Positions 1,892 through 61,547 of a stretch of 64,000 nt of DNA are shown here, piece after piece. Source of the DNA: Candidatus Berkelbacteria bacterium (GTDB lineage Bacteria; Patescibacteriota; UBA1384; DTJR01); NCBI GenBank assembly GCA_029865605.1, contig JAOUGE010000002.1, forward strand, positions 24,555-88,554. Reading direction: 5' to 3'. The notes below the pieces were generated by a model. That model saw nothing but the letters and a program-made list of their open reading frames with translations. It did not search any database and was not told the DNA's origin. A program made the position numbers and the translations under genes. The number at the start of each line of letters is the position of its first letter. Position 1 is the first letter of the stretch.

Positions 1892-3847
1892 ATGGAAAAT
1901 AATAAAAATAATGGCCAAGCGAAACAAGCGGTCTATCATGCTTCTTTAGAGGATTTTCGTCCCAATTTTCGCCGGGGCGCATCGGATCGATTCGCCTCGA
2001 TGCGCCAAGACGGGCGAAGCGGGTACCAGAATCGAGGCGGGTCGGGAAATGGTTTTAGTGGTTCGCGAAACAGAAGTCACAGTCAAACTAATCGGGCCGA
2101 TCGATTAAGAAATCGCAATGGAGGTAATGTTAAATTTTCTGCCGGTGCTCCTGCTCAAAAGATGGTGACATTTAAGGCCTCTAAAACGCTAAAACTCTCT
2201 CATCTCGGTGGTCTTGAAGAAGTCGGCCGGAATATGTCCTTTTTGGAATTTGGCAATGATATATTGGTAGTTGATGCCGGTTTTAGCTTCCCGACCGATG
2301 ATATGCCTGGAGTTGACTATGTTATCCCGGACGTATCATACTTGCAAGAGAACAAAAAAAGGATTAAGGGGATAGTTCTGACTCATGGCCACATGGACCA
2401 TATCGGCGCAATTCCCTATATAATCGAAAAGCTTGGCAGCCCGACCATTTATGGGACTAATCTTTCGCTCGGCATTTTGAAAGAAAAGCTTGAAGAGTTT
2501 GGTCTTAAGGATCGGGTTAAAACGGTTGTGGTAAATCCTGAAAAGGACGTGCTGCAGCTGGGGGTTTTTAAAGTCAGCTTTTTTAGAGTAAATCACAATA
2601 TTCCTGACACGGTTGGGTTGGTGATTGAAACTCCGATTGGCAAGGTAGTAAATACGGCTGACTTTAAATTTGATTTAACTCCGATTAATGAACCGGTGAT
2701 TGATCTAGGGCGGATCGCCGAAATTGGCAAAAACGGCGTTTTAGTTTTGATGATTGACTCAACTGGGGCAAGAAATGCTGGTTATGCTATTTCGGAGAGT
2801 GAGATCAAAAATAACTTAAGGGAGATTTTTGCTAAGTCTCGTGGCCGCGTTTTTATTGCTTCCTTTTCAACTTTGATTTCCAGAATTCAGCAGATTGTTG
2901 ATGTAACGGCCGAGATTAACCGCAAGCTGACTGTAACCGGCCGTTCGATGCTCTCCACTATTGAAGTTGCCTCGAAGCTTGGCTATCTCAAGGTTCCGGA
3001 GGGACTTATCGTAACCGCTCAGCAGGGTTCAAGATTGCCTGATGACAAGCTGATTATTTTGTCAACCGGCACGCAGGGCGAGGATGCTTCTGCTTTGACT
3101 CGAATGAGCCGCGGGGAGCATAAATTCTTCAAAATTCGCAGAGGCGACACGGTAATTTTGTCGAGCTCGATTATTCCGGGCAACGAGCGCCAAGTAGTTG
3201 AAGTCTACGATAATCTTCTTCGCGCCGGCGCCAAAGTGATCGATTACAAACAGATGGACATTCACACTTCCGGTCACGCTCATCAGGAAGAGCTGAAAAC
3301 GATGATGCGGCTCTTTAATTCAAAGTATGTCTTTCCTATTCACGGCAATCGCTATATGCGCCAAGCCAATGCTGATTTGGCTAAGTCGCTTGGGATGGAG
3401 GAGGAAAACCTGATCGTCATCGACAATGGCGAGGTGGTTGAATTTACTCCAACGAAATGCGAGATCCTTAAGATCAAAGTCCCGACCTCTTTTGTTTTGG
3501 TGGACGGGCTGGGAGTTGGCGATGTCGGTAATATCGTGCTTCGCGACCGTCAGGCAATGGCCGAGGGCGGTATCTTTGTCGTCATTTTGACGATTGATCA
3601 CAAGACCTCGCAAATTGTAACTTCGCCTGACATTATCTCGCGCGGCTTCGTTTATATGCGCGCCGCCGAAGATTTGATTCATCGAGCCCGCCAGGAGATC
3701 AAAAATATTTTCCGCCGCCACACGTTGCAGGGCAAACCGGCTGACTGGAGCTATATCAAAACTACACTTCGCGAAGATATGGGTGAGTTTTTGTTTAACG
3801 AAACCAAAAGACGTCCTATGGTGATACCAGTGATTATTGAAGTATAA
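1892..3847 (+). CDS. rnj: ribonuclease J (metallo-beta-lactamase / beta-CASP) with an about 90-aa Arg/Gly/Ser/Asn-rich N-terminal extension
   Basis: HGHMDHIGAIPYI zinc motif, beta-CASP region and RNase J C-terminal domain. ATG at 1892 with an AAGGAAA Shine-Dalgarno. Confidence 0.9.
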   Translation: MENNKNNGQAKQAVYHASLEDFRPNFRRGASDRFASMRQDGRSGYQNRGGSGNGFSGSRNRSHSQTNRADRLRNRNGGNVKFSAGAPAQKMVTFKASKTLKLSHLGGLEEVGRNMSFLEFGNDILVVDAGFSFPTDDMPGVDYVIPDVSYLQENKKRIKGIVLTHGHMDHIGAIPYIIEKLGSPTIYGTNLSLGILKEKLEEFGLKDRVKTVVVNPEKDVLQLGVFKVSFFRVNHNIPDTVGLVIETPIGKVVNTADFKFDLTPINEPVIDLGRIAEIGKNGVLVLMIDSTGARNAGYAISESEIKNNLREIFAKSRGRVFIASFSTLISRIQQIVDVTAEINRKLTVTGRSMLSTIEVASKLGYLKVPEGLIVTAQQGSRLPDDKLIILSTGTQGEDASALTRMSRGEHKFFKIRRGDTVILSSSIIPGNERQVVEVYDNLLRAGAKVIDYKQMDIHTSGHAHQEELKTMMRLFNSKYVFPIHGNRYMRQANADLAKSLGMEEENLIVIDNGEVVEFTPTKCEILKIKVPTSFVLVDGLGVGDVGNIVLRDRQAMAEGGIFVVILTIDHKTSQIVTSPDIISRGFVYMRAAEDLIHRARQEIKNIFRRHTLQGKPADWSYIKTTLREDMGEFLFNETKRRPMVIPVIIEV

Positions 3848-7896: not shown

Positions 7897-8356
7897 TTAT
7901 GCTCTCTGGTTAATTGGGCGAAGAGCAAGAACCCAGAGGGAAATCGAAGAAAAGCTCTCTCGGAAGGGATTTGATAAAAGCGAGATCCTGAAAACCGTAG
8001 ACAAACTCAAACAGCTCCGGCTGCTTGACGATAAAGAGTATTCCCTTTCATATATTAAGGCAAGCAAGTCCTTAAAACCCAAGGGACGTTACCGACTTTT
8101 GCTTGAGCTGACAAAGCACGGCGTTGATAAGGGGACGGCCCAGCTTGCTCTTGATGAGGAACTAGAGGATACAGGCACTCTGGCCGAAACGGCGCTCAAA
8201 TCTTATCTCAAGCGAAGCGGCGGACTTTCTAAAGAAAAATTATATCAGCGCTCGATGGGCTTTCTTTTGCGCCGGGGTTTCTCGCTTGATGAAGCAAAAA
8301 AAGCGGTTAAAAAAGTTTTGACTTCTGCTTCTTCTTCTGATAATTTTGACTTATGA
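7850..8356 (+). CDS. recX: recombination regulator RecX
   Basis: [36 protein letters not shown] three-helix repeats of about 168 aa. It overlaps the recA 3' end by 47 nt, and its stop overlaps the pyk ATG (ATGA). Confidence 0.7.
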
Positions 8357-9411
8357 TTGCCAGATTTTTTAAACCAAAACTTCCAGATAGAAGAACGAAA
8401 ATCGTATGTACTATCGGGCCGGCAACTTCCAAGGACTCGACTTTACGCAAATTGGTCAAAGAGGGAATGGATTTTGCTCGTTTTAATTTCTCTCACGGGC
8501 ACCTATCGGAGTTTGAACAATGGGCAAAAACAATTAGGAAATTTGCTAAGGCGGAGCGGCGCAAGGTGGAGATTATTCAAGATCTGCAAGGGCCAAGAGT
8601 AAGGGTGGGTACATTGGCTCATGAGGGGCGGACAATCATTGCTGGTCATAAGGTCGTTCTGGTTTTTGACGCAAAGGCCGAGCTCCGCCGAGGCGAAATT
8701 CCGATTGAAAACGATATCGGTTTGGACTTAAAGCGCTCTGATAAGATTTTAATGGATAGGGGGTTGATTGAACTTGAGGTTAAAAAGATAGAAGAGCTAC
8801 GGGTTGTTTGCCGCGCTTTGACCTCGGGGCATATTTTTACCGGCAAAGGCGTTAATTTGCCATCTACTGAAAGTAAGGCCGCTCTAACTCAAAAGGATCT
8901 CGAGGATATAAAGCATGGTCTTGAGATGAGAGTTGAGTGGATAGCGCTCTCGTTTGTTGAGGGCGCGGACGATATACGGGAGCTTAAAAAACATATTAAG
9001 GACTCGGTTAAAATAATCGCCAAGATTGAGCGGCCTCAGGCAATTCATAATTATCACGATATTGTCGAGGCGGCTGATGCGGTGATGATTGCCCGGGGCG
9101 ATTTGGGCATTGAAATTCCGTTTTGGAAACTACCGGTTATTCAAAAGCGGGCGATAAGACGAGCTCGAAATGCGGGAAAACCATCGATTGTTGCTACCGA
9201 TATGCTCGGCTCGATGGTTGTGGCCCAGCGCCCGACGAGGGCGGAGATTTTGGATGTAGCCAACGCGGTGATAGACGGGGCGAGCGCGGTGATGCTCTCT
9301 GATGAAACAGCAGTTGGCAAGCATCCGGTTGAGGCATTAGTTGCAATGCGAAAAATTATTGAAGAAGCCGAAGATTTCAAACGAACTCACGAGCTGAAAA
9401 GCTTATTGTAG
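8353..9411 (+). CDS. pyk: pyruvate kinase, short form (352 aa; no C-terminal regulatory domain evident)
   Basis: KIVCTIGPAT, NFSHG and MIARGDLGIEIP motifs. It ends shortly after the A-domain. Confidence 0.8.
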   Translation: MIARFFKPKLPDRRTKIVCTIGPATSKDSTLRKLVKEGMDFARFNFSHGHLSEFEQWAKTIRKFAKAERRKVEIIQDLQGPRVRVGTLAHEGRTIIAGHKVVLVFDAKAELRRGEIPIENDIGLDLKRSDKILMDRGLIELEVKKIEELRVVCRALTSGHIFTGKGVNLPSTESKAALTQKDLEDIKHGLEMRVEWIALSFVEGADDIRELKKHIKDSVKIIAKIERPQAIHNYHDIVEAADAVMIARGDLGIEIPFWKLPVIQKRAIRRARNAGKPSIVATDMLGSMVVAQRPTRAEILDVANAVIDGASAVMLSDETAVGKHPVEALVAMRKIIEEAEDFKRTHELKSLL

Positions 9412-9470
9412 GGCAAAGGACAAGGGTTGCTTTTTGAGCTCTTTTTTTTTAAAATAAGGGCTACTACGGC

Positions 9471-9499
9471 TTGACTTTCGGGTTAAGCTGTAGTATAGT
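9471..9499 (+). promoter_or_regulatory. sigma70-like promoter (TTGACT-17-TATAGT) at the entry to GC-rich island 1
   Basis: TTGACT at 9471-9476, a 17-nt spacer and TATAGT at 9494-9499, directly after a T9 run that ends pyk. Confidence 0.45.
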
Positions 9500-9633
9500 C
9501 CAGTGTTTCGCCTCTGAAGTACTTGAGGCGAAGCGTTTGTACATTGACGTAAGGTGGCGCTTGAGCGCCGCTATCGCACCACACTCGCACCTGCCCTCCG
9601 TAGCTTTACGCGAAGGAGGGGCACACAGAAAGG

Positions 9634-9960
9634 ATGAAGCAACAGATGAAGCCGACGCGACTTGAAGCTCTGGTTGCTGTTGCTTTTGCGCTTTTTGTTC
9701 TGCTCGTTGCAGGGTGGAATGAGCGGCGCGAAGCACGGCAGGAGCGGAAAGCAGACCAGCATGCAGCGTTCCACTGGGAGGCTGTCTACTACGGTCTGCC
9801 GCCGGAGGGGGTTAAGGCGTATGAGCTCGCTTGCGAGCGAAACGCCGACAACCCTCGGTTCGAGCGACGTCGCGCTCTACGGCAGCTGGCTCTGCACTAC
9901 TCGGGCGATCTCTTACCCGGGAGTGATGCGGAGGAAGCTGTCCGCTGGGCGCACCGCTAG
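9634..9960 (+). CDS. small membrane-anchored protein in GC-rich island 1 (function unknown)
   Basis: 108-aa ORF with an N-terminal TM (LEALVAVAFALFVLLVAGW). About 65-70% GC, unlike the flanks, and preceded by a roughly 130-nt leader with three hairpins. Confidence 0.4.
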   Translation: MKQQMKPTRLEALVAVAFALFVLLVAGWNERREARQERKADQHAAFHWEAVYYGLPPEGVKAYELACERNADNPRFERRRALRQLALHYSGDLLPGSDAEEAVRWAHR

Positions 9961-10021
9961 CATGGCTTCAACCCCGATCCGCCCTCGGGCGGGCGGGGAC
10001 AACGCGAGGGAGGGATCTGGC

Positions 10022-10210
10022 ATGACGGACAGCCCTATCGTTGAGTCGTTGGCCGGCGGCGAGGATCACTCGCCGGGTAGCCTCACGAAGGAAGAACTTC
10101 GGGAGGAGAACCGGCGGCGACGCAGGAAGAAGCGGAAGGAGAGCCGCAAGAGCAATGGCGGCTCTCGCCGCCAGCCCTGCACAGGCCGTCGTGTCAACGG
10201 CCACCGCTAG
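10022..10210 (+). CDS. possible small basic protein (62 aa, RRRRRKKRKESRK) in GC-rich island 1
   Basis: ATG at 10022, followed by a strong GC hairpin at 10232-10258. This could equally be a composition artefact. Confidence 0.2.
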   Translation: MTDSPIVESLAGGEDHSPGSLTKEELREENRRRRRKKRKESRKSNGGSRRQPCTGRRVNGHR

Positions 10211-10297
10211 GGGGTGGTGTCGTACACAGGGGCCGGGGTCTGTATTGACCCGGCCCCTCTTGCTGTCTGAAACTGGTGCCGAGGGAGGTGAACCCAA

Positions 10298-10780
10298 GTG
10301 GCACCGAGGGCAAAAGCGATCAAATTGCCGCTCATGGCAGCTGACATCGTGGCGATCTTGCCTCACCGCTTCCCGTTCCTTCTCGTAGATCGTGTTGTCG
10401 AGCTGGAGCCGGGCAAGCGGGTGGTTGGACTCAAGAACGTCACGGCCAACGAGCCCTGGGCGCAGGGTCACTGGCCGGAAACGCCGGTCCTGCCGGGTGT
10501 TCTTCAACAGGAGGCGCTGTATCAGCTTGGTGGCATTCTGGCTGTGAATAGTGAGTTTGACGGCCGGAAGCCGGTGCGTGGGAATATCTCGGCCGTCGAG
10601 AAGGTTCGCTACCGCGGGGATGGCGTAATCCCGGGCGACCAGCTGGTCCTCGAGGTCGTGTCTCTTCGCGGAAAACCCGGTGTTGGTATTCTGAAGTTCA
10701 GGGGTGCCGCTCGGGTTGGTGAACTCGAAGTCTGTACGATTGAGGAGTTCACCCTCGCTGTTGAGTTCGCCGAGACCTGA
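10298..10780 (+). CDS. fabZ: FabZ-like 3-hydroxyacyl-ACP dehydratase (hotdog fold), GC-rich
   Basis: ILPHRFPFLLVDRVVELEPGKRVVGLKNVTANEPWAQGHWPETPVLPGVL...EAL. The catalytic His and Glu positions are present. GTG start at 10298 with a GAGGGAGG Shine-Dalgarno. Confidence 0.6.
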   Translation: MAPRAKAIKLPLMAADIVAILPHRFPFLLVDRVVELEPGKRVVGLKNVTANEPWAQGHWPETPVLPGVLQQEALYQLGGILAVNSEFDGRKPVRGNISAVEKVRYRGDGVIPGDQLVLEVVSLRGKPGVGILKFRGAARVGELEVCTIEEFTLAVEFAET

Positions 10781-10806
10781 TCGAGCTGCGATGTGGTGGC
10801 ATACAG

Positions 10807-10848
10807 GGGCGTCCTGAGCGTAGTCGAAGGACGCCCTTTGTGGTTTTA
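10807..10848 (+). terminator. intrinsic terminator
   Basis: GGGCGTCCT...AGGACGCCC 9-bp stem followed by TTTGTGGTTTT. Confidence 0.6.
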
Positions 10849-10887
10849 TAGATATTCTTAACCTGATTTGCTAATATTTAACCAGAC

Positions 10888-10977
10888 GGAGAGATGCAGG
10901 AGCGGTTTAACTGGCAGACCTGGAAAGTCTGTGCGCGGGAAACTGCGCCGTGGGTTCGAATCCCACTCTCTCCGCCA
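10888..10977 (+). tRNA. tRNA-Ser (anticodon GGA), type II with a long variable arm, CCA encoded
   Basis: Acceptor GGAGAGA/TCTCTCC, anticodon stem-loop CAGAC-CTGGAAA-GTCTG, variable arm GCGCGGGAAACTGCGCC, T-arm GGGTTCGAATCCC, discriminator G, then CCA. Confidence 0.85.
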
Positions 10978-11098
10978 GCATATGTTGTGTCGACTGAGGG
11001 GTAGACGCAGCCTGTGCGGGAATGGAACTTGAAAGGCATAAGATTAACTTGAGTGCTGCGAGAGCGAATGATAATATGGGAGTGAGCAAAAGGATAAA

Positions 11099-12907
11099 AT
11101 GACTGTGAAAAAAACCGCTTTAAATTTGTTTAGTATTTTGTCAGGGTTGTTAATAATTTTTTACCCGTTTTTTGTCAATGCTTCTATTGATATTTACTAT
11201 GATTGGACTTATTCAATTGGTGGGACTCAGGACGAAGAAATCCGAGATATTGTTATAGATTCATCTGGAAATGTGTATTTTGTGGGATATTTTAAAGGCA
11301 CGGTAGATTTTAACCCCACAGGTGGAATTGATAGTCATACCTCTGCTGGTGATAGAGATATCTTTTTAACAAAAATTAACTCAAACGGAAGCTATGGTTA
11401 TACTTATTCAATTGGAAATACCGGCAAGGATGATGGCATGGGCATAGCAGTTGATGACTCTGACAATGTATATATAACGGGGCAATTTTCACTGACAGTA
11501 GATTTTAACCCCACCGGCGGGACGGATAATCATGCAAGCAATGGGGGGCAGGACATATTTTTAACAAAAATCAATTCAGATGCTACATACGGATACACCT
11601 ATACTGTGGGTGGAAATAGCTTAGATGAGCCTTCTGAAATAACACTCGACTCATTAAATAATATTTATATCTCCGGTTATTTTTACGATACAGTAGATTT
11701 TAACCCCACAGGCGGAACTGACAATCATGCGAGCAATGGTGAAAACGATTCGTTTTTATTGAAAATTAATTCCGACCAAACCTACGGATATGCCTATACG
11801 ATTGGTGGTCTCAATTTTGATGGCGGCAGTGCTGTTGACTGTGATTCATCTAATAATGTTTATATTTCAGGATATTTTACTGGTTTCAATATTGATTTGA
11901 ACCCCACTGCCGGAATTGATAATCATACTAGCAATGGAAATCGTGATGGATTTTACACTAAAATTAATTCCGATGGAACTTATGGATACAGCTATTCTTT
12001 TGGCGGTAGTAGCGCAGACGGCAGCTCCAGTATTGTTCTTGATTCATCTGACAACATTTATATTACTGGTGGTTTTTTTGGCACCGCCGACCTTGATCCG
12101 ACAGCGGGAACAGAAAATCATACCAGCAGTGGCAGCGCAGATTTCTATTTGATAAAAATTAATTCCGATGATTCATTCAACTTTGCTTACACTTTTGGCG
12201 GAACGGAAGGCGACTATTGCTATAAAGCAGAGATTGACTCTCACGGAAATATGTATTTAGTTGGAGGATATCAAGGAACAGCGGATTTTGACCCCACTGC
12301 AGGTACTGATAATCATACTGCCGTAGCATGGTATGACGCATACTTAGTGAGGATTGAAGCGGATGGAAGCTATGGAGGAATGTATAATTTTGGTGGAATT
12401 GACACTGATATTGCCTATGCAACAGCGATCAATAGTTCCGGAACTTTTTATATCGGGGGTTATTTTATGGAAACGGCTGATTTTGATCCTGGGACAGGGA
12501 CGGAAAACCATACTAGCAACGGAGGTTACGATATATTTTTGTCAAAGTATTCAATAGATTCTGCCCCTCCCATAATTAATAGTGTCAATCTTAGTGAGGG
12601 CCAAGTTATCTCTGGGTCTTACCACATAGAAACTTATGCTGAAGATGCCAAGAGCGGTGTGAAAAAAGTAGAATTTTTCATTGATGATAGTTTTCGATCT
12701 GAAGATTACAACAATCCTGCATATGACTACGAGTGGGACACCACCGGCCTTGCTGACGGTTCATATAGGGTTGGGGTTGTTGCTTATGATAATCAGAATA
12801 ACATGGCACAAGTTACTTATAATGTGCTAGTTGCAAATAGATCGTCACAAGTTTCGGTCGCCAGCGAATTGCCACAGACGGGAAGTGATTTAGGAAATTC
12901 ATTTTAG
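11099..12907 (+). CDS. secreted beta-propeller-repeat surface protein ending in LPQTG
   Basis: N-terminal signal/TM, then about ten repeats of (S/T)xGxxDxF(L/Y)xKINSDG(S/T)YGY..., a C-terminal Ig-like region and an ...ASELPQTGSDLGNSF* end. Confidence 0.7.
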   Translation: MTVKKTALNLFSILSGLLIIFYPFFVNASIDIYYDWTYSIGGTQDEEIRDIVIDSSGNVYFVGYFKGTVDFNPTGGIDSHTSAGDRDIFLTKINSNGSYGYTYSIGNTGKDDGMGIAVDDSDNVYITGQFSLTVDFNPTGGTDNHASNGGQDIFLTKINSDATYGYTYTVGGNSLDEPSEITLDSLNNIYISGYFYDTVDFNPTGGTDNHASNGENDSFLLKINSDQTYGYAYTIGGLNFDGGSAVDCDSSNNVYISGYFTGFNIDLNPTAGIDNHTSNGNRDGFYTKINSDGTYGYSYSFGGSSADGSSSIVLDSSDNIYITGGFFGTADLDPTAGTENHTSSGSADFYLIKINSDDSFNFAYTFGGTEGDYCYKAEIDSHGNMYLVGGYQGTADFDPTAGTDNHTAVAWYDAYLVRIEADGSYGGMYNFGGIDTDIAYATAINSSGTFYIGGYFMETADFDPGTGTENHTSNGGYDIFLSKYSIDSAPPIINSVNLSEGQVISGSYHIETYAEDAKSGVKKVEFFIDDSFRSEDYNNPAYDYEWDTTGLADGSYRVGVVAYDNQNNMAQVTYNVLVANRSSQVSVASELPQTGSDLGNSF

Positions 12908-12972
12908 ACCTTTTGGTTTAATGGGACGTTTTGAAAATATGCGCCACAATAATGGTTTTGACAAGAGGCATT

Positions 12973-13149
12973 ATGGCGAGTGAGCCAAAGGAAGAAAAAG
13001 ACTATGGAGCGCTTTTCATCCCGGGCGGATTGCTCCTGGGGTTAGGTGTCGCGCTTTTAATTGACCCGGGCCTGGTTCCTGGCGGACTGCTTGCTGGTCT
13101 TGGCGCAGGCTTTATCGCTTGGGCGATTGTAAGGGTAGCGAAGAAGTAA
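12973..13149 (+). CDS. small membrane protein (58 aa) with a basic tail (RVAKK)
   Basis: ATG at 12973 with an AAGAGG Shine-Dalgarno. Gly/Leu-rich TM segments. The listed 12931 start is TTG. Confidence 0.35.
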   Translation: MASEPKEEKDYGALFIPGGLLLGLGVALLIDPGLVPGGLLAGLGAGFIAWAIVRVAKK

Positions 13150-13212
13150 GGCGGTCAAGATTTTGCTAGCAAAAATATTTTGGTAGAGTAAATTTAATTT
13201 TTAGGGGGTAAA

Positions 13213-13713
13213 ATGCCAAAGCCAACTCAATATGCGACCCCGATTTGCATCGTTCTTTCAATTGTTGCTGTGATTGGAGTCGTTTTGGGCTTTTACCTTA
13301 AAAATCCGCTTATCCCGACCATTTTAGTTTTACCGGCTGTGGCTTATGAGGTTTATCGCACAGAGGGGAAGTCAACCCGCTGGTCATCAATAGGGATCTT
13401 GCTTCTTATAATCGCCGAACTCGTTTTGATATTTGCGAAGGTGAATTTTGATTTGGCGGGCTATCTCGGCCAAGGCGAGAAATATGTCGGCGGTTATCTG
13501 GTGCCACTTGGGGATATCAAAGTCATAACCCCGGTTATTATTGCCGTCTTATCGATTGTTCTTTTCTTTAGGACTTATGGCAAATACACGAAATGGCTGG
13601 CGGTTGTCATTTTTGCCTCTTGTTTTGCGATTATATACATAATCAACCCATCATTTTTCAGCCAGCTGATTAAGGTTGTTGTTGACGAAGGGCTGTACCG
13701 AATCAGATATTAA
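13213..13713 (+). CDS. integral membrane protein, function unknown
   Basis: 166 aa with about five predicted TM helices. Confidence 0.4.
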   Translation: MPKPTQYATPICIVLSIVAVIGVVLGFYLKNPLIPTILVLPAVAYEVYRTEGKSTRWSSIGILLLIIAELVLIFAKVNFDLAGYLGQGEKYVGGYLVPLGDIKVITPVIIAVLSIVLFFRTYGKYTKWLAVVIFASCFAIIYIINPSFFSQLIKVVVDEGLYRIRY

Positions 13714-13714
13714 A

Positions 13715-14923
13715 ATGATATATCTTGCCCCGATTGCGGGTTATATATTGGGCTCAATCAGTCCCTCATATTTTTTGGGAAGAGTTTTGCGCCATATTGA
13801 TTTACGCGAATATGGCGACGGAAATTTGGGGGCGACTAATACTAAACGCGTTTTAGGGCTTGCTCCGGCCGTGATCACGGCTATTTTTGATCTTTCTAAG
13901 GGGGTACTGGCGCTTTATATTGCCATATTACTTGGGGCACCCGACTGGCTTGCCTATTTGACGGGGCTTCTTGCGGTTGTTGGTCATATTTTTCCCTTTT
14001 ATTTGGGCTTTCGCGGCGGCCAGGGTGCGGCCACGGCCATGGGGCTTTTGTTCTATAGTTTTTATCAGATAATCACCGGTAAAATCTATAATTTAGCTCT
14101 TGATACCCTTTTAGCATTGGTTGTTTTGGGTGTATTGGCTCTTGGCGTTTATTTTATTTCAAGACGAGGAAATATTGTCGGCCTGGTTACACTGCCCGCG
14201 GCAATTGCTTTGGTTTTTCTTGTCCTACCGCTTAAAACCGTTCCTATTTATCTGGCCATTATCTTTGCTTTCCATTTTTCTATTCAGGTTTTTAATCTAG
14301 CTAAGGGCAAGGCGACGTTAAATATTCCTGAGCAGGTATCAAGGCAGATATTCAATTGGCGCTCGATCGCGAGGCCTCTCGCGGCACTTTTTGTAGTGAT
14401 TTCATTTTTTGTCTCGCATAATATTTTGCTTTATTTTGTTGGCGTGATCGCCTTGTTTTTTATTATTTTAGACCTCTTGCGGCTTTTAATCGGGCGTGTC
14501 AACTTTTTATTTTTTGCTAAATTGAAGGGATTTTTTAAGGAGAAAGAGAAAGCTAAGTTTTCCTCAATGACCTTGTTTTTAACGGCGGTATTTATTTTGT
14601 ATTTGGTCTTTCCGGGCAATATTGCCTCGGTGGCAGCGCTGTTTTTGATATTTGGCGATTTAATGGCAAAAGTTTTCGGACTTATCTTTGGCAAAACCAG
14701 GTTTGTCACCAAAACGCTTGAAGGCACGACAGCTTATTTTATTTTTTCGCTTTTGGCGGGGTTTATTTTCTCGCTTTTTACTCCATTGCCATTTTGGATT
14801 CTATCTATTGGCGCGTTGACCGCTGCCCTAGTTGAACCCCTTTCAATCTTTGGCATTGATGATAACTTTACCGTGGGGCTGATTTCCGGCTCGGTGATGT
14901 ACGCGCTATTAGTTTTGGTTTAA
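13715..14923 (+). CDS. plsY: PlsY (glycerol-3-phosphate acyltransferase) domain fused to a C-terminal CTP-transferase-1 family (polyprenol/phytol-kinase / CdsA-like) domain
   Basis: N-terminal half: GDGNLGATN, FDLSKG, GHIFPFYLGFRGGQGAATAMG. C-terminal half: LIFGDLMAKVFGLIFGKTRFVTKTLEGTTAYF, matching GD..A...G...GK...K(T/S)xEG. ATG at 13715. Confidence 0.6.
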   Translation: MIYLAPIAGYILGSISPSYFLGRVLRHIDLREYGDGNLGATNTKRVLGLAPAVITAIFDLSKGVLALYIAILLGAPDWLAYLTGLLAVVGHIFPFYLGFRGGQGAATAMGLLFYSFYQIITGKIYNLALDTLLALVVLGVLALGVYFISRRGNIVGLVTLPAAIALVFLVLPLKTVPIYLAIIFAFHFSIQVFNLAKGKATLNIPEQVSRQIFNWRSIARPLAALFVVISFFVSHNILLYFVGVIALFFIILDLLRLLIGRVNFLFFAKLKGFFKEKEKAKFSSMTLFLTAVFILYLVFPGNIASVAALFLIFGDLMAKVFGLIFGKTRFVTKTLEGTTAYFIFSLLAGFIFSLFTPLPFWILSIGALTAALVEPLSIFGIDDNFTVGLISGSVMYALLVLV

Positions 14924-38503: not shown

Positions 38504-38544
38504 TATCTTGTTTGTTTTGAAATATTACGAATTGGTTCATTAAA

Positions 38545-38762
38545 AACTAAACCACATGTGCAGCCCCGCCTATGGTGGGGTGGGAAGTGAGGTTGGATTC
38601 CTCCACAGTCCCGCTACTGTAATCCTTTGAGCTTGCCCCGAGGCTTGCGCGAAGGGAGTCAGAAAACCAATATGTGGTAAAACCGCAGTCCGCCTCTTGG
38701 CGGAGGTGGTGCCTCGGTCGAGGGCAAGGTCAAACATGGCTTTGCGCCATGTTTTTGTTATT
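38545..38762 (+). promoter_or_regulatory. cobalamin (B12) riboswitch-like leader with an intrinsic terminator
   Basis: GGGAAGTGAGGTTGGATTCCTCCACAGTCCCGCTACTGTAATCC matches the cobalamin-element core (GGAA..GGUG.AA.UCC...C.G.CCCGC.ACUGU.A). GGGAGTCAGAAAACC resembles the B12 box. Terminator stem AAACATGGC/GCCATGTTT plus a T-run at 38733-38760. Confidence 0.65.
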
Positions 38763-38779: not shown

Positions 38780-39151
38780 ATGAGGATAAAAAATAGTGTT
38801 ATATATAAAGTTATATTGATTTTAGTGTTAGGGGTAGGGATTTTGGGGCTTGCTGGTTGCGCAAGGAAAACGGAAACAAGCAGTGTAGAGCAGTCTAGTG
38901 TTGCTCAGGAGAAGACAATTGAGTATCAGGGGGAGGACGGCAAGACAGTTTGTGACCTCTTGCAGGCAAAATATCAAGTTGAAGCAAGCGAAGGTTCGAT
39001 GGGTATGCTAGTTAATTCAATTAATGGACTTAAAGCAACTGACAAGGAGTTCTGGCTCTATTCGGTTAATGATAAGCCTGGTGAAGTCGCCTGCGATAAG
39101 CAAGAAACAAAAACCGGCGATAAAGTTCTCTGGGAGTATAAAGGGTTTTAG
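38780..39151 (+). CDS. small lipoprotein, DUF4430-like (candidate B12-binding protein)
   Basis: Lipobox LGLAGC. The C-terminal pattern ...FWLYSVNDKPGEVACDKQETKTGDKVLWEYKGF resembles the W.Y.VNg......DGD.v.W.Y signature. Sits directly behind the riboswitch with an AAAGGAG Shine-Dalgarno. Confidence 0.5.
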   Translation: MRIKNSVIYKVILILVLGVGILGLAGCARKTETSSVEQSSVAQEKTIEYQGEDGKTVCDLLQAKYQVEASEGSMGMLVNSINGLKATDKEFWLYSVNDKPGEVACDKQETKTGDKVLWEYKGF

Positions 39152-44750: not shown

Positions 44751-45467
44751 TTGAAGGGCGCACTGGTTTTTGGTGGTTCGGGAGGCATTGGCACGGCAAT
44801 TGCCGAGGAACTTAAAGATCTCGATTATAAAATTGTTGTTGCCGACCGCCGCGGGCCAAAACCTGAAACTTGTGACCATTACGTTCCGGTTGATGTGACC
44901 AAAGAAGCTGACATCAAGCGAGCGATCAGCTTTACCCAAGATAATTTTGGTACTTTGGATGCGGTCATAAATTCTCAAGGTATTTATATTCTTGAAGCGG
45001 CGGAGCTGACCAAGGTTAGTGATTGGCGCAAGATTATCGAGGTGAATCTAAGCAGCGTTTTCTTGGTCTGCAAGCATACTATTCCGATAATGAAATGGCA
45101 GAGACAGGGCGGGTATATTATTAACATCGCTTCGATGTCCGGACTTAGGGGACGAGCGGGTAAGGCGGCTTATTGCGCCAGCAAATTTGGGGTGATTGGG
45201 CTAACCGAATCTATTTATGAAGAATTGCGGGGAACAAAAATAAGGATTACAGCAGTTTGCCCCGCTTCAGTTGACACTTCGCTTACTAATAACAAGCATC
45301 TTTTGAAACGCGATGAGATTGAGAAAATTTTGCAGCCGGAGGATGTGGCTCGAGCAGTTGGAGAATTAGTTGAATCGAATCCGCGGGTACTGCGCAAAAC
45401 TGTAGTTTTGGATATTGAGCTAAAAATAGATAAGTTTCAGCGCCTAAAGACCTCAAAGTTGGAGTAG
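44751..45467 (+). CDS. short-chain dehydrogenase/reductase (SDR)
   Basis: GGSGGIGTAIA (TGxxxGxG), NSQG, and YCASK (YxxxK). TTG start at 44751 after an AGAGGGG Shine-Dalgarno. Confidence 0.8.
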   Translation: MKGALVFGGSGGIGTAIAEELKDLDYKIVVADRRGPKPETCDHYVPVDVTKEADIKRAISFTQDNFGTLDAVINSQGIYILEAAELTKVSDWRKIIEVNLSSVFLVCKHTIPIMKWQRQGGYIINIASMSGLRGRAGKAAYCASKFGVIGLTESIYEELRGTKIRITAVCPASVDTSLTNNKHLLKRDEIEKILQPEDVARAVGELVESNPRVLRKTVVLDIELKIDKFQRLKTSKLE

Positions 45468-46300: not shown

Positions 46301-47998
46301 TTATATTACACTTTTCTGATAGCAATCTTCGCAGTAAACTTTCTCTGGTCTATCCGGTGCATAGGTCGTTTCAAATTCGTTTTTGCAACCTTGGTTCATA
46401 CATTTTCTATGCCAGAGTTTACGGGGGTTGCGTAAGGCAAAACGTTCTTTGTATCTAATATTATAGTGTTTGGTTGGAATAGGTATTTTATTTTTAAGAT
46501 AATATGCTAACTCTTGCGGCATAATTTTAAATGGTTTATTTGATATCTCACACTTTAGTATCCCAGCAAGCAGTTTTTCTCTTTCATTTTCATTTTCGAT
46601 GTATTCATCAATATCATCTTTTGGCTCATAAAATGGTCCGTTGTACTTAATGCCATAATCTTTATCCTGCCACTTAGCATCAAGCTTTAGAGCCCCCTCT
46701 TTTTCAAGAGGAAAGTAGTCCATAGCCACTGTCTCGTTATAGCCAAAGGGACTTATTGAAACAGGGAAAAACTCTCCCCATTCGCCGTCTTTTTGCATTT
46801 TCTCAATTATCTGACCCGTTAACTTCTCATATTCTTGTTTAGAGTATTGTTTATTTAAAATGCAATATTGTTTATGGCGAAGACCGACACAGCCGAAGCA
46901 ACGCGAACAATATTCGCAGTGATTACAATACAGGTTGTTGTCTCCGTATGTAGCCCAAGTGCAAAACAAGTGCTTGTATCCAGCAATGCTTTCTCCCTCA
47001 TAACAGAGCTGCATTTCAGCAGATATATTTAAATCCTGGCAATCTTTTGCATCGCTATCGATATTATAAATTTTTTTGCAACCCTCGCACTTATAAGAAT
47101 TATATGAATCCTTGCAGTTTTTGCATTCGACTAAATAATCACCAGTGCATCCCTCTGATTTCTTATTGTTGTCGGATTTTCTAATGACACCTAGTTTGAT
47201 CCTTTTAAGTTCATTTATCAGGTTCCTTTGGATAGAACGGCTGGACAGATTTATTTTTTTAAATTCTTCAAAATATTTTTCTTTTGTATACTTTTTGTTT
47301 TTGATGTAGTACTGCTTGTTTCGTAGGTTCGTGCATAGCAAGACATTGTTGCACCCCTTGCAATCGTACGAGAAATGGGATTCAGTGCAGTTCTCACAAT
47401 GCTCCAAAAAGGTGGATGAATTACACTTGTCACAGTCAGTACAAAAGTAGCAATTCTCGCAATTCCTAACATAGAAGCAGTCTACGCAATCTTTCACCCT
47501 AAGAATTTCATTCGAGTAATAGCAGCTTTCGGCATATCCAGCGATAAAACACAAATAAGAATCCTTTAGGTGCCAAACTTCTTGGCAATATTCGCAGTTT
47601 TCGACAATTGTGGAGAGGGTTGCGAGTTTTGGAACTTGTCTGAATAAACTTTCGAATTGGGAGAAAAAATCTCGTTTTGAATCAAAATCGCAGCCATATT
47701 TTAGCGGATCCCAGTCGTCTTTCCATATTTCAATATTTTTCCAGACTTTGTATGGTTTGTCCGGAGAGTAGATGCTAATAATATTTTCTTGCGTTTTATC
47801 ACACTTTCGTTTGTATAGATTGGTAGATGCTTCCCAAACCATTCGCCTTTGGTCTCTACATTTTGGACACAGTGTCGGCGGAGGAATTTCGTAGGTTTTA
47901 CCCGCAAAAGTAGGGGAGATTTTTTTATAGAACTCTAAATCCTCGTCCTCAACGACGAATTTCTGATCGCACTGTTTACAGGTCTTATTCATACTCAT
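46301..47998 (-). CDS. cysteine-rich protein, paralogue 1 of 3 (unrecognised family)
   Basis: 565 aa. N-terminal CKQCDQKF...LCPKCR, dense CxxC runs, and a C-terminal ...FETTYAPDRPEKVYCEDCYQKSVI. Its ATG overlaps the upstream stop (ATGA). Confidence 0.7.
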   Translation of the reverse strand: MSMNKTCKQCDQKFVVEDEDLEFYKKISPTFAGKTYEIPPPTLCPKCRDQRRMVWEASTNLYKRKCDKTQENIISIYSPDKPYKVWKNIEIWKDDWDPLKYGCDFDSKRDFFSQFESLFRQVPKLATLSTIVENCEYCQEVWHLKDSYLCFIAGYAESCYYSNEILRVKDCVDCFYVRNCENCYFCTDCDKCNSSTFLEHCENCTESHFSYDCKGCNNVLLCTNLRNKQYYIKNKKYTKEKYFEEFKKINLSSRSIQRNLINELKRIKLGVIRKSDNNKKSEGCTGDYLVECKNCKDSYNSYKCEGCKKIYNIDSDAKDCQDLNISAEMQLCYEGESIAGYKHLFCTWATYGDNNLYCNHCEYCSRCFGCVGLRHKQYCILNKQYSKQEYEKLTGQIIEKMQKDGEWGEFFPVSISPFGYNETVAMDYFPLEKEGALKLDAKWQDKDYGIKYNGPFYEPKDDIDEYIENENEREKLLAGILKCEISNKPFKIMPQELAYYLKNKIPIPTKHYNIRYKERFALRNPRKLWHRKCMNQGCKNEFETTYAPDRPEKVYCEDCYQKSVI

Positions 47999-49725
47999 AT
48001 AACTGCTTTCTGATAACAGCTCTCGCAATATACTTTCTCTGGTCGGTCGGGGGCGTAGGTGGTTTCAAATTCATTTGGGCAACGACTAGAATGTCCATGC
48101 TCTGTTTCTTCACACATGCACTGGCGGTGATATAAATTCATTTTATTGAACATATCCAGTCGCTCTTTGTATCTTACATCAGGATGTTTTCTCGGTATTT
48201 GGAGTTTATTTTCGATATATTGAGCTAATTCTCGCGGGATTATCTTAAATGGTTTCCCAGAAACTTCGCACTTGATTATACCTTTAATGCATTTTTCTAT
48301 TTCATCATTCGCATCGGGGTTGTATTCTATATCATATTCTTTTATATCCTTCGGCTTATAATAAGGCCCAGCATTTTTTGTGGAGTAATCCTTGTCTTGC
48401 CATTTTAGGTCAAGTCTTTTTGCCTTATCTTTTTTAATTGGAAAGTGCTCGAAAGCGTTTGATTCATTGTAGCAAAATGGTGAGATAGCGGTCGGAAAAA
48501 ATTCTCCCCATTCACCCTGTTTTGACATTTGTTCGATAATTCGGGCAACCTTTATCTTGTATTCCTCCTCGGAATATTGCTTGTTCAAAATACAATATTT
48601 TTTGCGATTTAAACTTACACATCCAAACAAATCATTGCTGTTAGTACAGTTATAACAATAATATGAATTTCTGACTGAATCACAAGAAGTCATAAATGCT
48701 GAATTATATAATTTTGTAGAAGATGCGCCCTCATAAATAAGTTCGCCTCGGCCAATTGAGAGGGCATCCATAATCTCTTTCATACTATCAATCATATAAA
48801 CATAACGAGCGTTCTCGGTTTTGTAACAATAATAACTGTCCTTAACATCCTTGGAATTAAGCATTATATCTCCCGTACAATCACCTTGGCAAGAAATCAC
48901 AGTAACATACTTAAAGGGATATCTGAGTTTATTTTTTTTAGACATTGCTTGAGCTCGCATTACCCCCTCATAGCTATCGGTATATTCTTTAACCCTTTTA
49001 AGATACTCTTCTTTTTTTAGTTCTTCGTTAAAAAAATAGTATTTTTTATAACGCAGGTTTGTTGAGCTAAAACAAGAGTTGCATCCAACGCAGTCATTGC
49101 AGAATAAACAATCATTGCACATATGGCAATTGAACAAATATTGACTATCAAAGCATCCTACAGAGAAGACACTATTATGAACTTTATCTGAATAGCCGAC
49201 ACCAAAACAATCTGTCATGTCATTTCCGTGGATACAGCTATTACAATGGAAACAATTTCTGTTGTCGTTTCCTCCAGTACATAAATAACAATTGCTGCTG
49301 TTCATTTCCTGATTTACAAATTCACTATTTTCACAGTTTGTTGCAAAAAGGGTCAGAAGGTAGGTGCTATGCAATAGGTCATCGAATTGCTCAAAAAAAG
49401 ATCTGTTAATATCATAATTCCGCTCGCTTTCATGCTGGTTCCACTTATCTGACCAAAAACAATCCTTGCATAAAGCCTTTGGTTTTTTGTCGGGAGAATA
49501 CACGGAAATTATCTCTCTTTTGCAGATTGAGCACTCATTTTTATAAAACTTTCTTTCGTTTCGCCAATTCATTCTTCTTATCAATCGACACTCAGGACAC
49601 AGTGTCGGCGGCGGAATTTCAAAAGTCTTGCCGGCAAATGTCGGGGAGATTTTTTTGTAAAAGGCTAGGTCGTCATCTTCAACGACGAACTTTTGGTGGC
49701 ATTGTTTGCAGGTTTTATCAATCAT
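47995..49725 (-). CDS. cysteine-rich protein, paralogue 2 of 3
   Basis: 576 aa with the same architecture. Ends ...FETTYAPDRPEKVYCESCYQKAVI. Its ATG overlaps the upstream stop (ATGA). Confidence 0.7.
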   Translation of the reverse strand: MIDKTCKQCHQKFVVEDDDLAFYKKISPTFAGKTFEIPPPTLCPECRLIRRMNWRNERKFYKNECSICKREIISVYSPDKKPKALCKDCFWSDKWNQHESERNYDINRSFFEQFDDLLHSTYLLTLFATNCENSEFVNQEMNSSNCYLCTGGNDNRNCFHCNSCIHGNDMTDCFGVGYSDKVHNSVFSVGCFDSQYLFNCHMCNDCLFCNDCVGCNSCFSSTNLRYKKYYFFNEELKKEEYLKRVKEYTDSYEGVMRAQAMSKKNKLRYPFKYVTVISCQGDCTGDIMLNSKDVKDSYYCYKTENARYVYMIDSMKEIMDALSIGRGELIYEGASSTKLYNSAFMTSCDSVRNSYYCYNCTNSNDLFGCVSLNRKKYCILNKQYSEEEYKIKVARIIEQMSKQGEWGEFFPTAISPFCYNESNAFEHFPIKKDKAKRLDLKWQDKDYSTKNAGPYYKPKDIKEYDIEYNPDANDEIEKCIKGIIKCEVSGKPFKIIPRELAQYIENKLQIPRKHPDVRYKERLDMFNKMNLYHRQCMCEETEHGHSSRCPNEFETTYAPDRPEKVYCESCYQKAVI

Positions 49726-51449
49726 TTCTCTTCATCCCAATAGCACTTTTCACAATACACTTTTTCTGGTTTTTCAGGAGGATATGAAGTTTCGAATTCC
49801 GTCTTACATCTGCCTTCGTGGTCATGGTCTGTTTCTTCGCAATCGCACTGACGATGGAATAATTTTATATGGTTTATTAAATTGAATCTCTCGGTGAACC
49901 GAGTTTCAAAGTGTTTCTGCGGAATAGGTATCTTATTTCTAATATAAAAATGCAGCTCTTGAGGTGTAATTTTATACGGTCTGCCGCTAACTTTGCACTT
50001 TAAAACTCCGTCTAATAGCTCCTGTCGCAATTTCTCGCTTTTTGCATATTCAACAATTGCTTTCGGCTCGTAGGGCGTGCCGTCAAATTTCAGGGAGAAG
50101 TCGTCATCTTGCCACCCAAATCCAAGTTTCTGTGCCTCTTCCTTACTCAAGGGATAATAATCGTTAGCGATCGTCTCGTTATACCCAAAAGCGCTAACAT
50201 TATTTGAAAACCACTCTCCCCACTCCTCATCTTTCTGCATCCGCCCAATTATTTTCGCAACCGTTGCCTTGTATTCTTCTTCGGAGTATTGCTTGTTTAA
50301 AATGCAGTGTTTTTTATGGTTTTTGACTCCGACGCAACCAAAGAGACTGTCGCAGTAGTAGCAGTGATCACAGTAGAACGAGTTGGATAATTGATAGGCA
50401 AAAGAGATAAACGAACTTCTGGTTGTTCCAAGGCCGATGTTTGTTCCTTGATACAGCAGTTCGCCGGTATTGCCGAAACCGGATACATCATAGGAGTCCT
50501 TGGTCGAAAACATCCCGTAGCAGAATTTGCAGTCCTCGCAATTCGTCATCATAAAACATCTCTGGCAGTTTTTAGAATCGAAAATATCCTCTCCTGAACA
50601 ATTTTCGCTCCGCAGCATTTGGGAGAATTTCTTGGGGCGAGAAATTATTATTTCTCTGAATTCTTTTCTATATTCATCTATCTTTGTCTCAAGTCCGGCT
50701 AAAAATTCTTTTTTTACTTTTTCGTATTCGTCTTTTTCAAGTTGTTGATTTTTATAGCAATATCTTTTTCTGTACAGGCAGCTGCATAGGATGCAGTCAG
50801 CACAACTGTTGCAATCTTCTATAAAATACGAATCTCGACAATTTCCGCAGTTTATCGACCAATTGATGTTATAGCATTTGCCAAGGTTTATTCCTTCGTA
50901 ACAAAGTTCGCTAAATGCGCCGAAGGTGAGATCAACGCACGATTTACAATTATCAACGTAGTAGCCGTAATAGACGCTCTCGTTATTTCCGGCTAAAAAA
51001 AGCAGATAGCAGTCTCTGTTTCCGTCGGCCAAGTTGGTATATTCGGAGTTTTCCGATTTTACATTCATAAGGGCCGCCTTTGGAACAGCGGTCTTTAACT
51101 CAGCGAATTGTTGGAAAAACGGCTTTAAGGGATCGAAGTCGCGCCCGTATTTTAGCGGCTCCCATTTGTCTGACCACCAGCATTGCTGGCAATAAACAGT
51201 TACTTTTTTATCTGGCGAATAGACTGTGATTATGTCTTTCTGGCACAAATCACACTTTCTTTTATAGAGTTTCACCACGTTTCTAAAAGCAAAACGGATC
51301 TGCTGCCGGCAATCTGGGCACAACGTCGGCGCTGGCATCTCGTAGGTCTTACCCGCGAAAGTAGGGGATATTTTTTTGTAAAATATTAAATCGTCGGCGG
51401 TGACGGCGAATTTGGTTTTACATTGTCGGCATTGTTTTTCTAGGGCCAT
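49722..51449 (-). CDS. cysteine-rich protein, paralogue 3 of 3
   Basis: 575 aa. Ends ...FETSYPPEKPEKVYCEKCYWDEEK. Starts 9 nt after the L,D-transpeptidase stop. Confidence 0.7.
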   Translation of the reverse strand: MALEKQCRQCKTKFAVTADDLIFYKKISPTFAGKTYEMPAPTLCPDCRQQIRFAFRNVVKLYKRKCDLCQKDIITVYSPDKKVTVYCQQCWWSDKWEPLKYGRDFDPLKPFFQQFAELKTAVPKAALMNVKSENSEYTNLADGNRDCYLLFLAGNNESVYYGYYVDNCKSCVDLTFGAFSELCYEGINLGKCYNINWSINCGNCRDSYFIEDCNSCADCILCSCLYRKRYCYKNQQLEKDEYEKVKKEFLAGLETKIDEYRKEFREIIISRPKKFSQMLRSENCSGEDIFDSKNCQRCFMMTNCEDCKFCYGMFSTKDSYDVSGFGNTGELLYQGTNIGLGTTRSSFISFAYQLSNSFYCDHCYYCDSLFGCVGVKNHKKHCILNKQYSEEEYKATVAKIIGRMQKDEEWGEWFSNNVSAFGYNETIANDYYPLSKEEAQKLGFGWQDDDFSLKFDGTPYEPKAIVEYAKSEKLRQELLDGVLKCKVSGRPYKITPQELHFYIRNKIPIPQKHFETRFTERFNLINHIKLFHRQCDCEETDHDHEGRCKTEFETSYPPEKPEKVYCEKCYWDEEK

Positions 51450-52995: not shown

Positions 52996-53070
52996 CGGCC
53001 CGTAGCTCAGCGGTAGAGCGGCGCTCTTATAAGGCGTATGTCACAGGTTCGAATCCTGTCGGGCCGACCA
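52996..53070 (+). tRNA. tRNA with anticodon UAU (Ile, AUA-decoding) by manual folding; CCA encoded
   Basis: Acceptor CGGCCCG/CGGGCCG, D-arm GCTCAGCGGTAGAGC, anticodon stem GCGCT/GGCGT with loop CTTATAA, T-arm ACAGGTTCGAATCCTGT, ACCA end, and a downstream terminator hairpin ATGGCGTAAGCCAT plus a T-run. Confidence 0.6.
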
Positions 53071-59441: not shown

Positions 59442-59642
59442 CAACGAGTATTTGATCTTGAGAAAAGCAATAATAACCCACTAACCTTGACTTATGGGGG
59501 GGATTTGGAGTAAGTTAATGCCGACGGTTAAGGAGCAATAGCTTGACCGCGCGGCGCTTTTAGCGCTAGTTTCAAAATCCATGCCCGCCGGCAGGCGGGC
59601 AGTTCGGGCTCAAAGCTCGGACGATATGCGGAGGTCGGAACG

Positions 59643-60407: not shown

Positions 60408-60422
60408 CGTTTTCGTTCTCAA

Positions 60423-60450
60423 AGGGGCGGGCCTGTGTAGGCCCGCCCCT
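60423..60450 (+). terminator. intrinsic terminator
   Basis: AGGGGCGGGCC-tgtgt-AGGCCCGCCCCT followed by TTCTCGTATT. Confidence 0.6.
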
Positions 60451-60620
60451 TTCTCGTATTGAGTATTGACTTTTTAAGATATTTATGGTATAGTTTTTGC
60501 CGACGGTTAAGGAGTGATGACTTGACCGCGAAGCGCTTTAAGCGCTAGTTTCAAAATCTATGCCCGCCGGCAGGCGGGCAGTTCGGGCGCAAAGCTCGGA
60601 CGATATGCGGAGGTCGGACG

Positions 60621-61496: not shown

Positions 61497-61518
61497 CCAC
61501 CTCGACCTCTAGTACTCG

Positions 61519-61547
61519 ATGGGGCGGACCTACATAGGTCCGCCCCA
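61519..61547 (+). terminator. intrinsic terminator
   Basis: ATGGGGCGGACC-tacat-AGGTCCGCCCCAT followed by TCTTGTTT. Confidence 0.6.

Follow-up and report, generated by a model that had tools for sequence, protein, structure and literature searches.

A GC-rich fabZ operon with its own promoter and terminator in a Candidatus Berkelbacteria genome

The stretch of DNA considered here, referred to as the window, comprises 64,000 nucleotides of contig JAOUGE010000002.1 (metagenome-assembled genome GCA_029865605.1) from a Candidatus Berkelbacteria bacterium, a member of the candidate phyla radiation (CPR). Between the pyruvate kinase gene pyk and a gene for tRNA-Ser(GGA), the window carries a GC-rich block, island 1, in which two small open reading frames (ORFs) precede fabZ, a gene of the (3R)-hydroxyacyl-thioester dehydratase type (Table 1). 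An earlier note on this DNA had described the block as a lone fabZ cassette of foreign composition, acquired horizontally and perhaps from a high-GC partner, with a chimeric contig as the other option. GenBank already annotates RecA, pyruvate kinase, a hypothetical protein of 108 aa, and FabZ at this place. The pyk product matches PF00224 at 1.1e-93 and is labeled by NCBI as pyruvate kinase of Candidatus Berkelbacteria.

Anatomy and gene products of the locus

Island 1 extends from 9551 to 10850 with a GC content of 0.619, while the window averages 0.451 (sd 0.061; 300-nt windows over 64 kb). It is one of two long segments with GC ≥0.58, the other lying at 58951–61550. In 200-nt windows, GC is 0.40–0.49 over 9300–9600, then 0.64–0.675 over 9700–10300, does not fall below 0.58 until ~10800 and is 0.315–0.36 past 11000 (0.315 at 11100–11299). 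The same picture emerges from GC at third codon positions (GC3), which is at least 0.6 in five of the 54 window genes, namely the three ORFs of island 1 (0.63, 0.79, and 0.68 in order) and two lipoprotein genes of the other segment (0.74 and 0.79), and 0.32–0.53 in the remaining 49. Given that only these two sharply bounded units stand out, the genome in the window is not generally heterogeneous in GC, which the earlier note had named as an observation that would speak against an island. The abrupt switch that it described is therefore real, a discrete block of ~62% GC on a 45% background. It had placed the switch at 9460–10850, and only the left edge needs correction: the rise begins at ~9550, not at 9460, and the promoter and the first hairpin have 42–52% GC.

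The block is laid out as a transcription unit. Its promoter is kept as TTGACT-17-TATTAT in contigs L171, L168, and L169, which together with L003 represent diverged relatives from other samples; the first three cover the left junction of the island and L003 the right one. The stem-loop with which the transcript is predicted to begin has two base pairs that are swapped compensatorily between the window and L171/L168. The leader folds with z = -2.25 over 9500–9650, and a middle hairpin at 9553–9572 sits in the portion missing from the relatives. Rfam searches of the leader and the inter-ORF hairpins returned noise alone, both at gathering thresholds and at E ≤10, and a known RNA family was rejected for these elements. 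A GC-rich hairpin is found past each cistron. L171 has one at the position equivalent to that past cistron 1. The hairpin before fabZ reads GGGGCCGGGGTC-TGTATTG-ACCCGGCCCC and is kept in L003 together with the adjoining CTCTTGCTGTCYGAAAC; it is probably a partial terminator or a 3' stabilizer. L003 also keeps the stretch GGTGGCATACARGGG and the stem base of the terminator, and has the tRNA-Ser gene in the same place. Thus, a promoter and a terminator of its own flank genes of deviant composition, and both are kept in relatives, as befits an autonomous unit. The promoter, the hairpin-rich leader, the terminator, and the directly following tRNA gene had all been proposed in the earlier note, and all stand.

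The first ORF begins at a start codon (ATG 9646) whose conservation is evident from the comparison with relatives. Its GC at the three codon positions (0.76/0.44/0.63) is similar in style to that of fabZ. The corresponding ORF of L171 has 71 aa, and the two can be aligned only over MKxTRLExLV and the transmembrane segment; despite the lack of alignment past the N-terminus, both have 61–64% GC, with GC3 of 0.63 (window) and 0.82 (L171). No match was found in Pfam, NCBIfam, PHROG, or PADLOC, and the 108-aa form has zero homologues among 5.8 billion proteins. The product is a fast-evolving ORFan membrane protein. The poly-basic ORF that follows has no family match in the same four collections. 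L171 retains its Shine–Dalgarno sequence (SD), its ATG, and ~16 initial codons, with one in-frame 3-nt indel, and this ORF is probably a real gene. The earlier note had put forward both of these ORFs, the second only as a possibility with a strong hairpin after it, and they are retained here. Two overlapping candidates, a minus-strand ORF at 9968–10507 and a 182-aa ORF at 9662–10210, were rejected, as they overlap better-supported genes and the relatives keep the starts at 9646 and 10022.

The fabZ product matches PF07977 (1.5e-23; 83.4 bits, cutoff 23) and passes the NCBIfam model NF000582 (127.2 bits, cutoff 113), falling below the strict equivalog TIGR01750 (128.4 bits, cutoff 155.15). It aligns over its full length with solved FabZ proteins such as PDB 1z6b (1.5e-30) and 6n3p. 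The catalytic His58 (GHWP) and Glu72 (QQEALYQ) align to the PfFabZ residues and are among the 34 invariant columns of a 26-sequence FabZ alignment, all 34 of which are retained. The AlphaFold2 model (pLDDT 87.8, pTM 0.86) has the hot-dog fold, and a PDB search with it gave FabZ for each of the top 50 matches, the best being 3az8_C (E = 2e-16, TM-score 0.83/0.92, rmsd 1.9 Å). Judged by family models, catalytic residues, and the fold model, the assignment as a FabZ-like hot-dog dehydratase with an intact His/Glu context, already made in the earlier note, is well founded. GenBank models the gene from ATG 10334 (148 aa, MDH4358474.1, “FabZ”); GTG 10298 is favored as the start because of the SD GAGGTGA, which is conserved in the comparison with L003.

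Between the window and L003, the FabZ proteins are 74% identical, with proportions of synonymous and nonsynonymous differences (pS and pN) of 0.51 and 0.165, a synonymous divergence (dS) of ~0.86, and a ratio of nonsynonymous to synonymous divergence (dN/dS) of 0.22; GC3 of the gene is 0.68 and 0.79, respectively. An intact protein under purifying selection implies that FabZ is in use. Some features set it apart from the known representatives. The usual GHFP motif reads GHWP in the Berkelbacteria protein, and the preceding FF is replaced by WA in the window and kept in L003. There is no fab, acc, lpx, or acpP neighbor, and the gene is predicted to share its transcript with two tiny ORFans. Moreover, the host belongs to the CPR, which are generally unable to make lipids and generally lack genes of type II fatty-acid synthesis (FAS-II) (PMC7242380).

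Table 1. Features of island 1, its flanks, and island 2 (positions in the window)
Feature	Position	Strand	Description
pyk	8353–9411	+	352-aa pyruvate kinase with the barrel domain alone; GC and GC3 both 0.47; host gene on the left flank
Island-1 promoter	9471–9499	+	sigma-70-type TTGACT-17-TATAGT
5' leader	9500–9645	+	only first hairpin and SD/start region conserved
5' stem-loop	9505–9534	+	10-bp stem, 6 nt past the -10 hexamer, at predicted transcript 5' end
First ORF	9646–9960	+	small membrane protein of 104 aa with one transmembrane pass (108 aa from ATG 9634)
Hairpin past cistron 1	9971–9998	+	GC-rich
Poly-basic ORF	10022–10210	+	62 aa; SD GGGAGGG 7 nt before ATG; GC3 0.79; unannotated in GenBank; probably real
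Inter-ORF hairpin before fabZ	10229–10257	+	U-poor tail
fabZ	10298–10780	+	(3R)-hydroxyacyl-thioester dehydratase type, 160 aa from GTG 10298
Intrinsic terminator of the operon	10807–10848	+	stem 10807–10815/10828–10836, then T-tract; z = -2.7
tRNA-Ser(GGA)	10888–10977	+	own promoter region; right flank, outside the operon
Island 2	59487–61548	+	two tandem cassettes: promoter, ~130-nt leader, lipoprotein gene, GGGGCGG hairpin terminator
Island-2 lipoprotein genes	59643–60407 and 60621–61496	+	paralogues, products of 254 and 291 aa, 53% identical
Island-2 hairpin terminators	60424–60449, 61521–61546	+	GGGGCGG type

Conservation in relatives and a second island

The path from pyk through the island to the tRNA gene is the same in three assemblies, namely an ENA MEGAHIT contig of 97.5 kb, a JGI/NCBI contig of 95.8 kb, and one from Logan. 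The Logan assembly of SRR7132115 is broken within the 3' end of tRNA-Ser, where the pieces overlap by ~29 nt (10949–10977). The pyk genes of L171, L168, and L169 are 81–83% identical in DNA to that of the window and are followed by the same promoter, first hairpin, small membrane ORF, and start of the basic ORF. L003 supplies the remainder, from the inter-ORF hairpin through a GC-rich fabZ, the terminator, and tRNA-Ser(GGA) to low-GC host genes that include dnaG, whose product is 84% identical to that of the window at the N-terminus. Island 1 is thus present in the lineages of the window, of L171, of L168/L169, and of L003. Host pyk has a dS of 1.1–1.4 between lineages; with a fabZ dS of the order of host genes and the dN/dS given above, the operon has diverged together with its hosts under purifying selection.

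The surroundings are less uniform. The stretch from tRNA-Ser to dnaG (10978–14923 in the window, 816–1530 in L003) differs between lineages: the window has a gene for an SBBP/Big_7 surface protein at 11099–12907 (GC3 0.32, the minimum of the window), two small ORFs, and plsY, while L003 has an HD hydrolase gene instead. L172, a 1.2-kb JGI contig from another sample, carries a pyk that is 100% DNA-identical to that of L171 and diverges fully 15 nt past the stop codon. Its positions 1166–1242, compared with L171 from 1228 onward, hold a host-like hairpin and then GGAGG-N6-ATG, and the contig ends after these 77 nt; it could represent an allele in which the island is absent or replaced, or the divergence could be an artefact of the contig end. 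Furthermore, two independent assemblies, L170 (1–2913) and L173 (1–2448), contain a frameshifted pyk and ~70 nt of the island upstream region up to the -35 box, and continue with a C-terminal fragment of recA, recX, a DUF2628 gene, and pyk again. This arrangement is a segmental duplication with its junction inside the island promoter. Together, the L172 allele and the L170/L173 junction suggest a recombinationally active spot, which leaves room for localized biased conversion and for occasional replacement from a pool.

The second GC-rich segment of the window, island 2, shares the design of the first. The exact sequence TTGACT-N17-TATAGT occurs twice in 64 kb, at 9471 in island 1 and at 60466–60494 in island 2, and the hairpin motif GGGGCSG..CSGCCCC three times, always inside the two islands (expected 0.02). 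In both islands, the leader opens with a stem-loop a few nucleotides past the -10 box in which compensatory changes are kept. A common plan can be formulated as TTGACT-17-TATAGT, a 5' stem-loop, one or more GC3-rich ORFs, and a GGGGCSG hairpin. Apart from these motifs, there is no DNA similarity between the islands. Their relative synonymous codon usage (RSCU) correlates at 0.68 with each other, and at 0.10 and -0.17 with that of host genes. Within island 2, ~200 nt of leader and signal-peptide region are 86–91% identical between the cassettes.

The island-2 lipoproteins have no match in Pfam or NCBIfam and only three other homologues, two of which lie on readable contigs (L174 and L175) that are syntenic, Berkelbacteria-like, and chromosomal. 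These orthologues share 43–48% amino acid identity with the window proteins, compared with 34–63% for flanking host proteins, and their pS of 0.53–0.63 is near saturation for their composition. Nevertheless, the L174/L175 genes have 63% GC and a GC3 of 0.77–0.83, their neighbors 0.29–0.50; over all lineages compared, island 2 stays at 0.74–0.83 against ~0.45 in neighboring genes. Since GC3 is intact despite near-saturated synonymous turnover, the composition must be maintained, a result that passive amelioration cannot yield. The fabZ gene itself, with its two GC3 values at the dS given above, fits maintenance or slow decay alike.

Origin and maintenance of the high GC content

We favor, at a probability of roughly 55%, the view that island 1 is a resident, autonomous three-cistron operon of Berkelbacteria whose ~62% GC has been kept over the long term as that of a small class of cassettes and does not point to a recent foreign source. 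In such an operon, the near-consensus sigma-70 promoter would start a transcript near 9505, and the stem-loop at the transcript start may shield the 5' end from nucleases such as the RNase J whose gene lies at 1892–3847. The transcript would carry, in order, the small membrane protein, the small basic protein, a GC-rich hairpin, and FabZ. As this hairpin has a U-poor tail and no promoter follows it, a fraction of transcripts would read through into fabZ and end at the intrinsic terminator just before tRNA-Ser(GGA). The high GC content could be kept by selection on the mRNA or by locally biased repair or conversion.

A wider proposal, which we put forward tentatively and at somewhat less than even odds, is that Berkelbacteria keep a small set of promoter-defined cassettes of 62–65% GC and GC3 of 0.7–0.8 in genomes of ~45% GC, the fabZ operon being a member. 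Their composition would outlast synonymous saturation owing to mRNA selection (for stability or RNase resistance) or to localized GC-biased conversion, and the compartment would mimic transfer. Per 120 nt, the folds of island mRNAs have roughly double the stability of those of host mRNAs, through composition alone. Compared with synonymous shuffles, the outcome is mixed: five of the eight island genes are more structured (z = -3.4 to -6.1), and the other three reach only -0.6 to -1.3.

Several observations weigh against a resident operon of maintained composition. In the same shuffle comparison, the host pyk also reaches -3.2. All three codon positions are enriched in GC, which is also seen in genes acquired from elsewhere, and given the general absence of FAS-II from CPR (PMC7242380), some past transfer of fabZ is plausible. 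Only two diverged fabZ sequences are available, and their GC3 of 0.68/0.79 at dS ~0.86 could be incomplete amelioration; the case for maintenance is strong for island 2 and the first ORF, and extends to fabZ only by analogy. The identity of pyk in L172 and L171, followed by different sequence, hints at gain, loss, or replacement. In addition, no ACP (acyl carrier protein) or other FAS-II gene is called within ~66 kb, and the roles of the 5' stabilizer, of the attenuator, and of FabZ in metabolism are ones that we infer.

The alternative that survives best is an ancient uptake by the ancestor of the subclade, from an unsampled GC-rich donor or from a GC-rich element of the lineage's own mobilome, with a composition that is still ameliorating. 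The lipoprotein cassette would then have been gained jointly or separately, the promoter and hairpin style would be that of the donor, and recombination with a pool could occasionally refresh the islands. Such an uptake would account for the deviant GC at all codon positions, the codon usage uncorrelated with that of the host, the confinement of the promoter and hairpin style to the islands, the adjoining tRNA gene, and the presence of a fabZ that is unusual for CPR (PMC7242380); the pyk-identical contig without the left end of the island and the rearrangement junction in the island promoter (L170/L173) point in the same direction. We nevertheless regard it as the less likely reading. The donor is missing: outside the clade, the best FabZ among 5.8 billion proteins has ≤57% identity, and a scan of GTDB (one genome per species, 185,579) and of JGI metagenomes gave matches of 43–56% from many phyla. 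In a neighbor-joining tree, the Berkelbacteria FabZ pair forms its own long branch without a sister group, its nearest neighbor shifting between bootstraps (≤20/100), and none of the outside fabZ loci fetched has a comparable GC excess over its flanks. The first ORF is without any homologue, and the lipoproteins have just the three described, those on the contigs that could be read being syntenic and chromosomal. Above all, the steady GC3 of ~0.8 in island 2 past near-saturating synonymous divergence is not something that passive amelioration can produce. An ancient transfer of fabZ itself is possible.

Signs of mobility were sought without success. The neighboring genes (recA, recX, pyk, tRNA-Ser, plsY, dnaG, rpoD) include no integrase or recombinase and are not those of a prophage. 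At the borders, no att-type or tRNA-derived direct repeat was found past a chance-level 14-mer; this match of 13/14 nt to the 3' end of tRNA-Ser lies at 10162–10175, inside the 62-aa ORF (CTCTCGCCGCCAGC vs CTCTCTCCGCCAGC), is equaled in 7 of 100 shuffles, and has surroundings without further tRNA similarity. Integrase-type insertion at tRNA-Ser was rejected on these grounds. A phage or plasmid origin was likewise rejected: IMG/VR viral contigs gave no match for FabZ or the lipoprotein; INPHARED gave 24 FabZ matches, all below 60% identity (43–46% among the matches listed); in PLSDB, similarity was confined to ~100 nt of ordinary fabZ genes; the one PHROG match, a weak one for fabZ (E = 0.0054), was to a family without assigned function; and PADLOC was negative. 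Island 1 has the composition and codon usage of an island (GC 0.62 against 0.45, GC3 0.63–0.79 against 0.32–0.53, RSCU r of 0.10), and neither a mobility signature nor a donor clade or near-identical copy accompanies it.

Far less probable is the reading of the earlier note, in which a high-GC partner recently donated a lone fabZ cassette. The abrupt switch in composition, the self-contained promoter and terminator, and the strain-level contig L172 without the left end would all suit it. However, at least three more lineages, with a difference of 17–19% in pyk DNA, carry the island, fabZ has reached 74% amino acid identity and a dS of 0.86 between two of them, and no near-identical donor gene exists in the protein, species-genome, and metagenome collections searched. 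Recent acquisition from such a partner is not supported, given also the host-like divergence and the lack of mobility genes; the homology search and phylogeny that the note had called for yielded no donor, the tree being uninformative as to a sister group. As for a chimera, in which the assembler would have joined a GC-rich piece from another organism, the composition jump and the Logan break inside tRNA-Ser could hint at it, the latter being a usual repeat-induced graph branch at a ~29-nt overlap, but a chimera is excluded because both junctions recur in the diverged relatives L003, L168, L169, and L171 from other samples and in three assemblies of the window's own lineage.

Comparison with known types of elements helps to place the operon. 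Like integrase-acquired, tRNA-associated islands, it is a deviant block beside a tRNA gene, with possible presence/absence between L171 and L172. Unlike them, it lies upstream of the 5' end of the tRNA, has no integrase, tRNA-derived repeat, or donor, and is common to diverged lineages with host-like divergence. Phage morons, a concept of Hendrix and Juhala, are promoter–gene–terminator units of deviant composition inserted between genes. The operon resembles them in being transcribed independently, from a sigma-70 promoter to an intrinsic terminator of its own, and in differing in composition from its neighbors, but it is found outside a prophage, without a meaningful PHROG or viral-contig match, and in a position kept over long divergence. 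Lassalle et al. (2015) are said to have attributed the GC3 enrichment of recombining bacterial genes to GC-biased gene conversion. Here, too, a local GC3 excess is held against the genome background and signs of recombination are at hand, namely the tandem duplication in island 2, the L172 allele, and the L170/L173 junction. In contrast to that case, the effect is far larger (GC3 +0.2 to +0.35), ends at the limits of one transcription unit, and is tied to a specific promoter and hairpin design.

Other features, metabolic context, and implications

Beyond the two islands, the window holds further features of interest. A tRNA-Ile with anticodon TAT (UAU) is encoded at 52996–53070, which is unusual for bacteria; most bacteria read AUA via a lysidine-modified CAU tRNA. 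A DUF4430 gene at ~38780–39151 is preceded by a cobalamin riboswitch at 38542–38686, which scores 38.9 bits against a gathering threshold of 31.5. On the minus strand, 46301–51449 contains three consecutive ORFs of near-equal length (~575 aa) and GC 0.36–0.41 without a Pfam match, and one further such ORF stands at the start of L174. These may represent an array of paralogous surface proteins.

The earlier note had called fabZ a lone gene, and among the Pfam-annotated genes across ~66 kb no member of the acpP, fabD/F/G/H/I, or acc families was indeed found. The sole other FAS-II-like candidate in the window is a short-chain dehydrogenase/reductase (SDR) gene at 44751–45467. Its composition is like that of the host, and models of 3-ketoacyl-ACP reductase are among its best matches, with scores that all stay under the FabG cutoffs. 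The literature search found nothing specific on fabZ in Berkelbacteria, Patescibacteria, or CPR. A parallel is given by the partial FAS-II sets without ACP machinery reported in Nealsonbacteria (Probst et al. 2020, PMC7242380). In both cases, a CPR genome carries one or more FAS-II homologues with no ACP machinery visible nearby; there, however, the pathway is near-complete, whereas here it is reduced to fabZ and a sub-cutoff SDR in ~66 kb. The plsY gene lies 3 kb downstream of fabZ. Its product (13676–14923) has ~413–415 aa, about double the usual length; the N-terminal ~200 residues match PlsY models below curated cutoffs, and the C-terminal half has no family match. Our best guess is that FabZ most likely serves the remodeling or elongation of scavenged acyl chains, in which it would dehydrate 3-hydroxyacyl intermediates of chains that feed the PlsY route.

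In CPR genomes, GC-rich islands beside tRNA genes are normally flagged as contamination, misbinning, or fresh transfer, readings that are wrong or unproven here. As island 1 is a conserved chromosomal feature, filters for horizontal transfer or decontamination that rely on composition would wrongly remove or mislabel it. If mRNA selection or localized biased conversion proves to be the cause, these loci would provide a compact natural system for testing the control of base composition in bacteria. Finally, a FabZ under purifying selection in a presumed lipid scavenger offers a handle on how such episymbionts may modify acyl chains.

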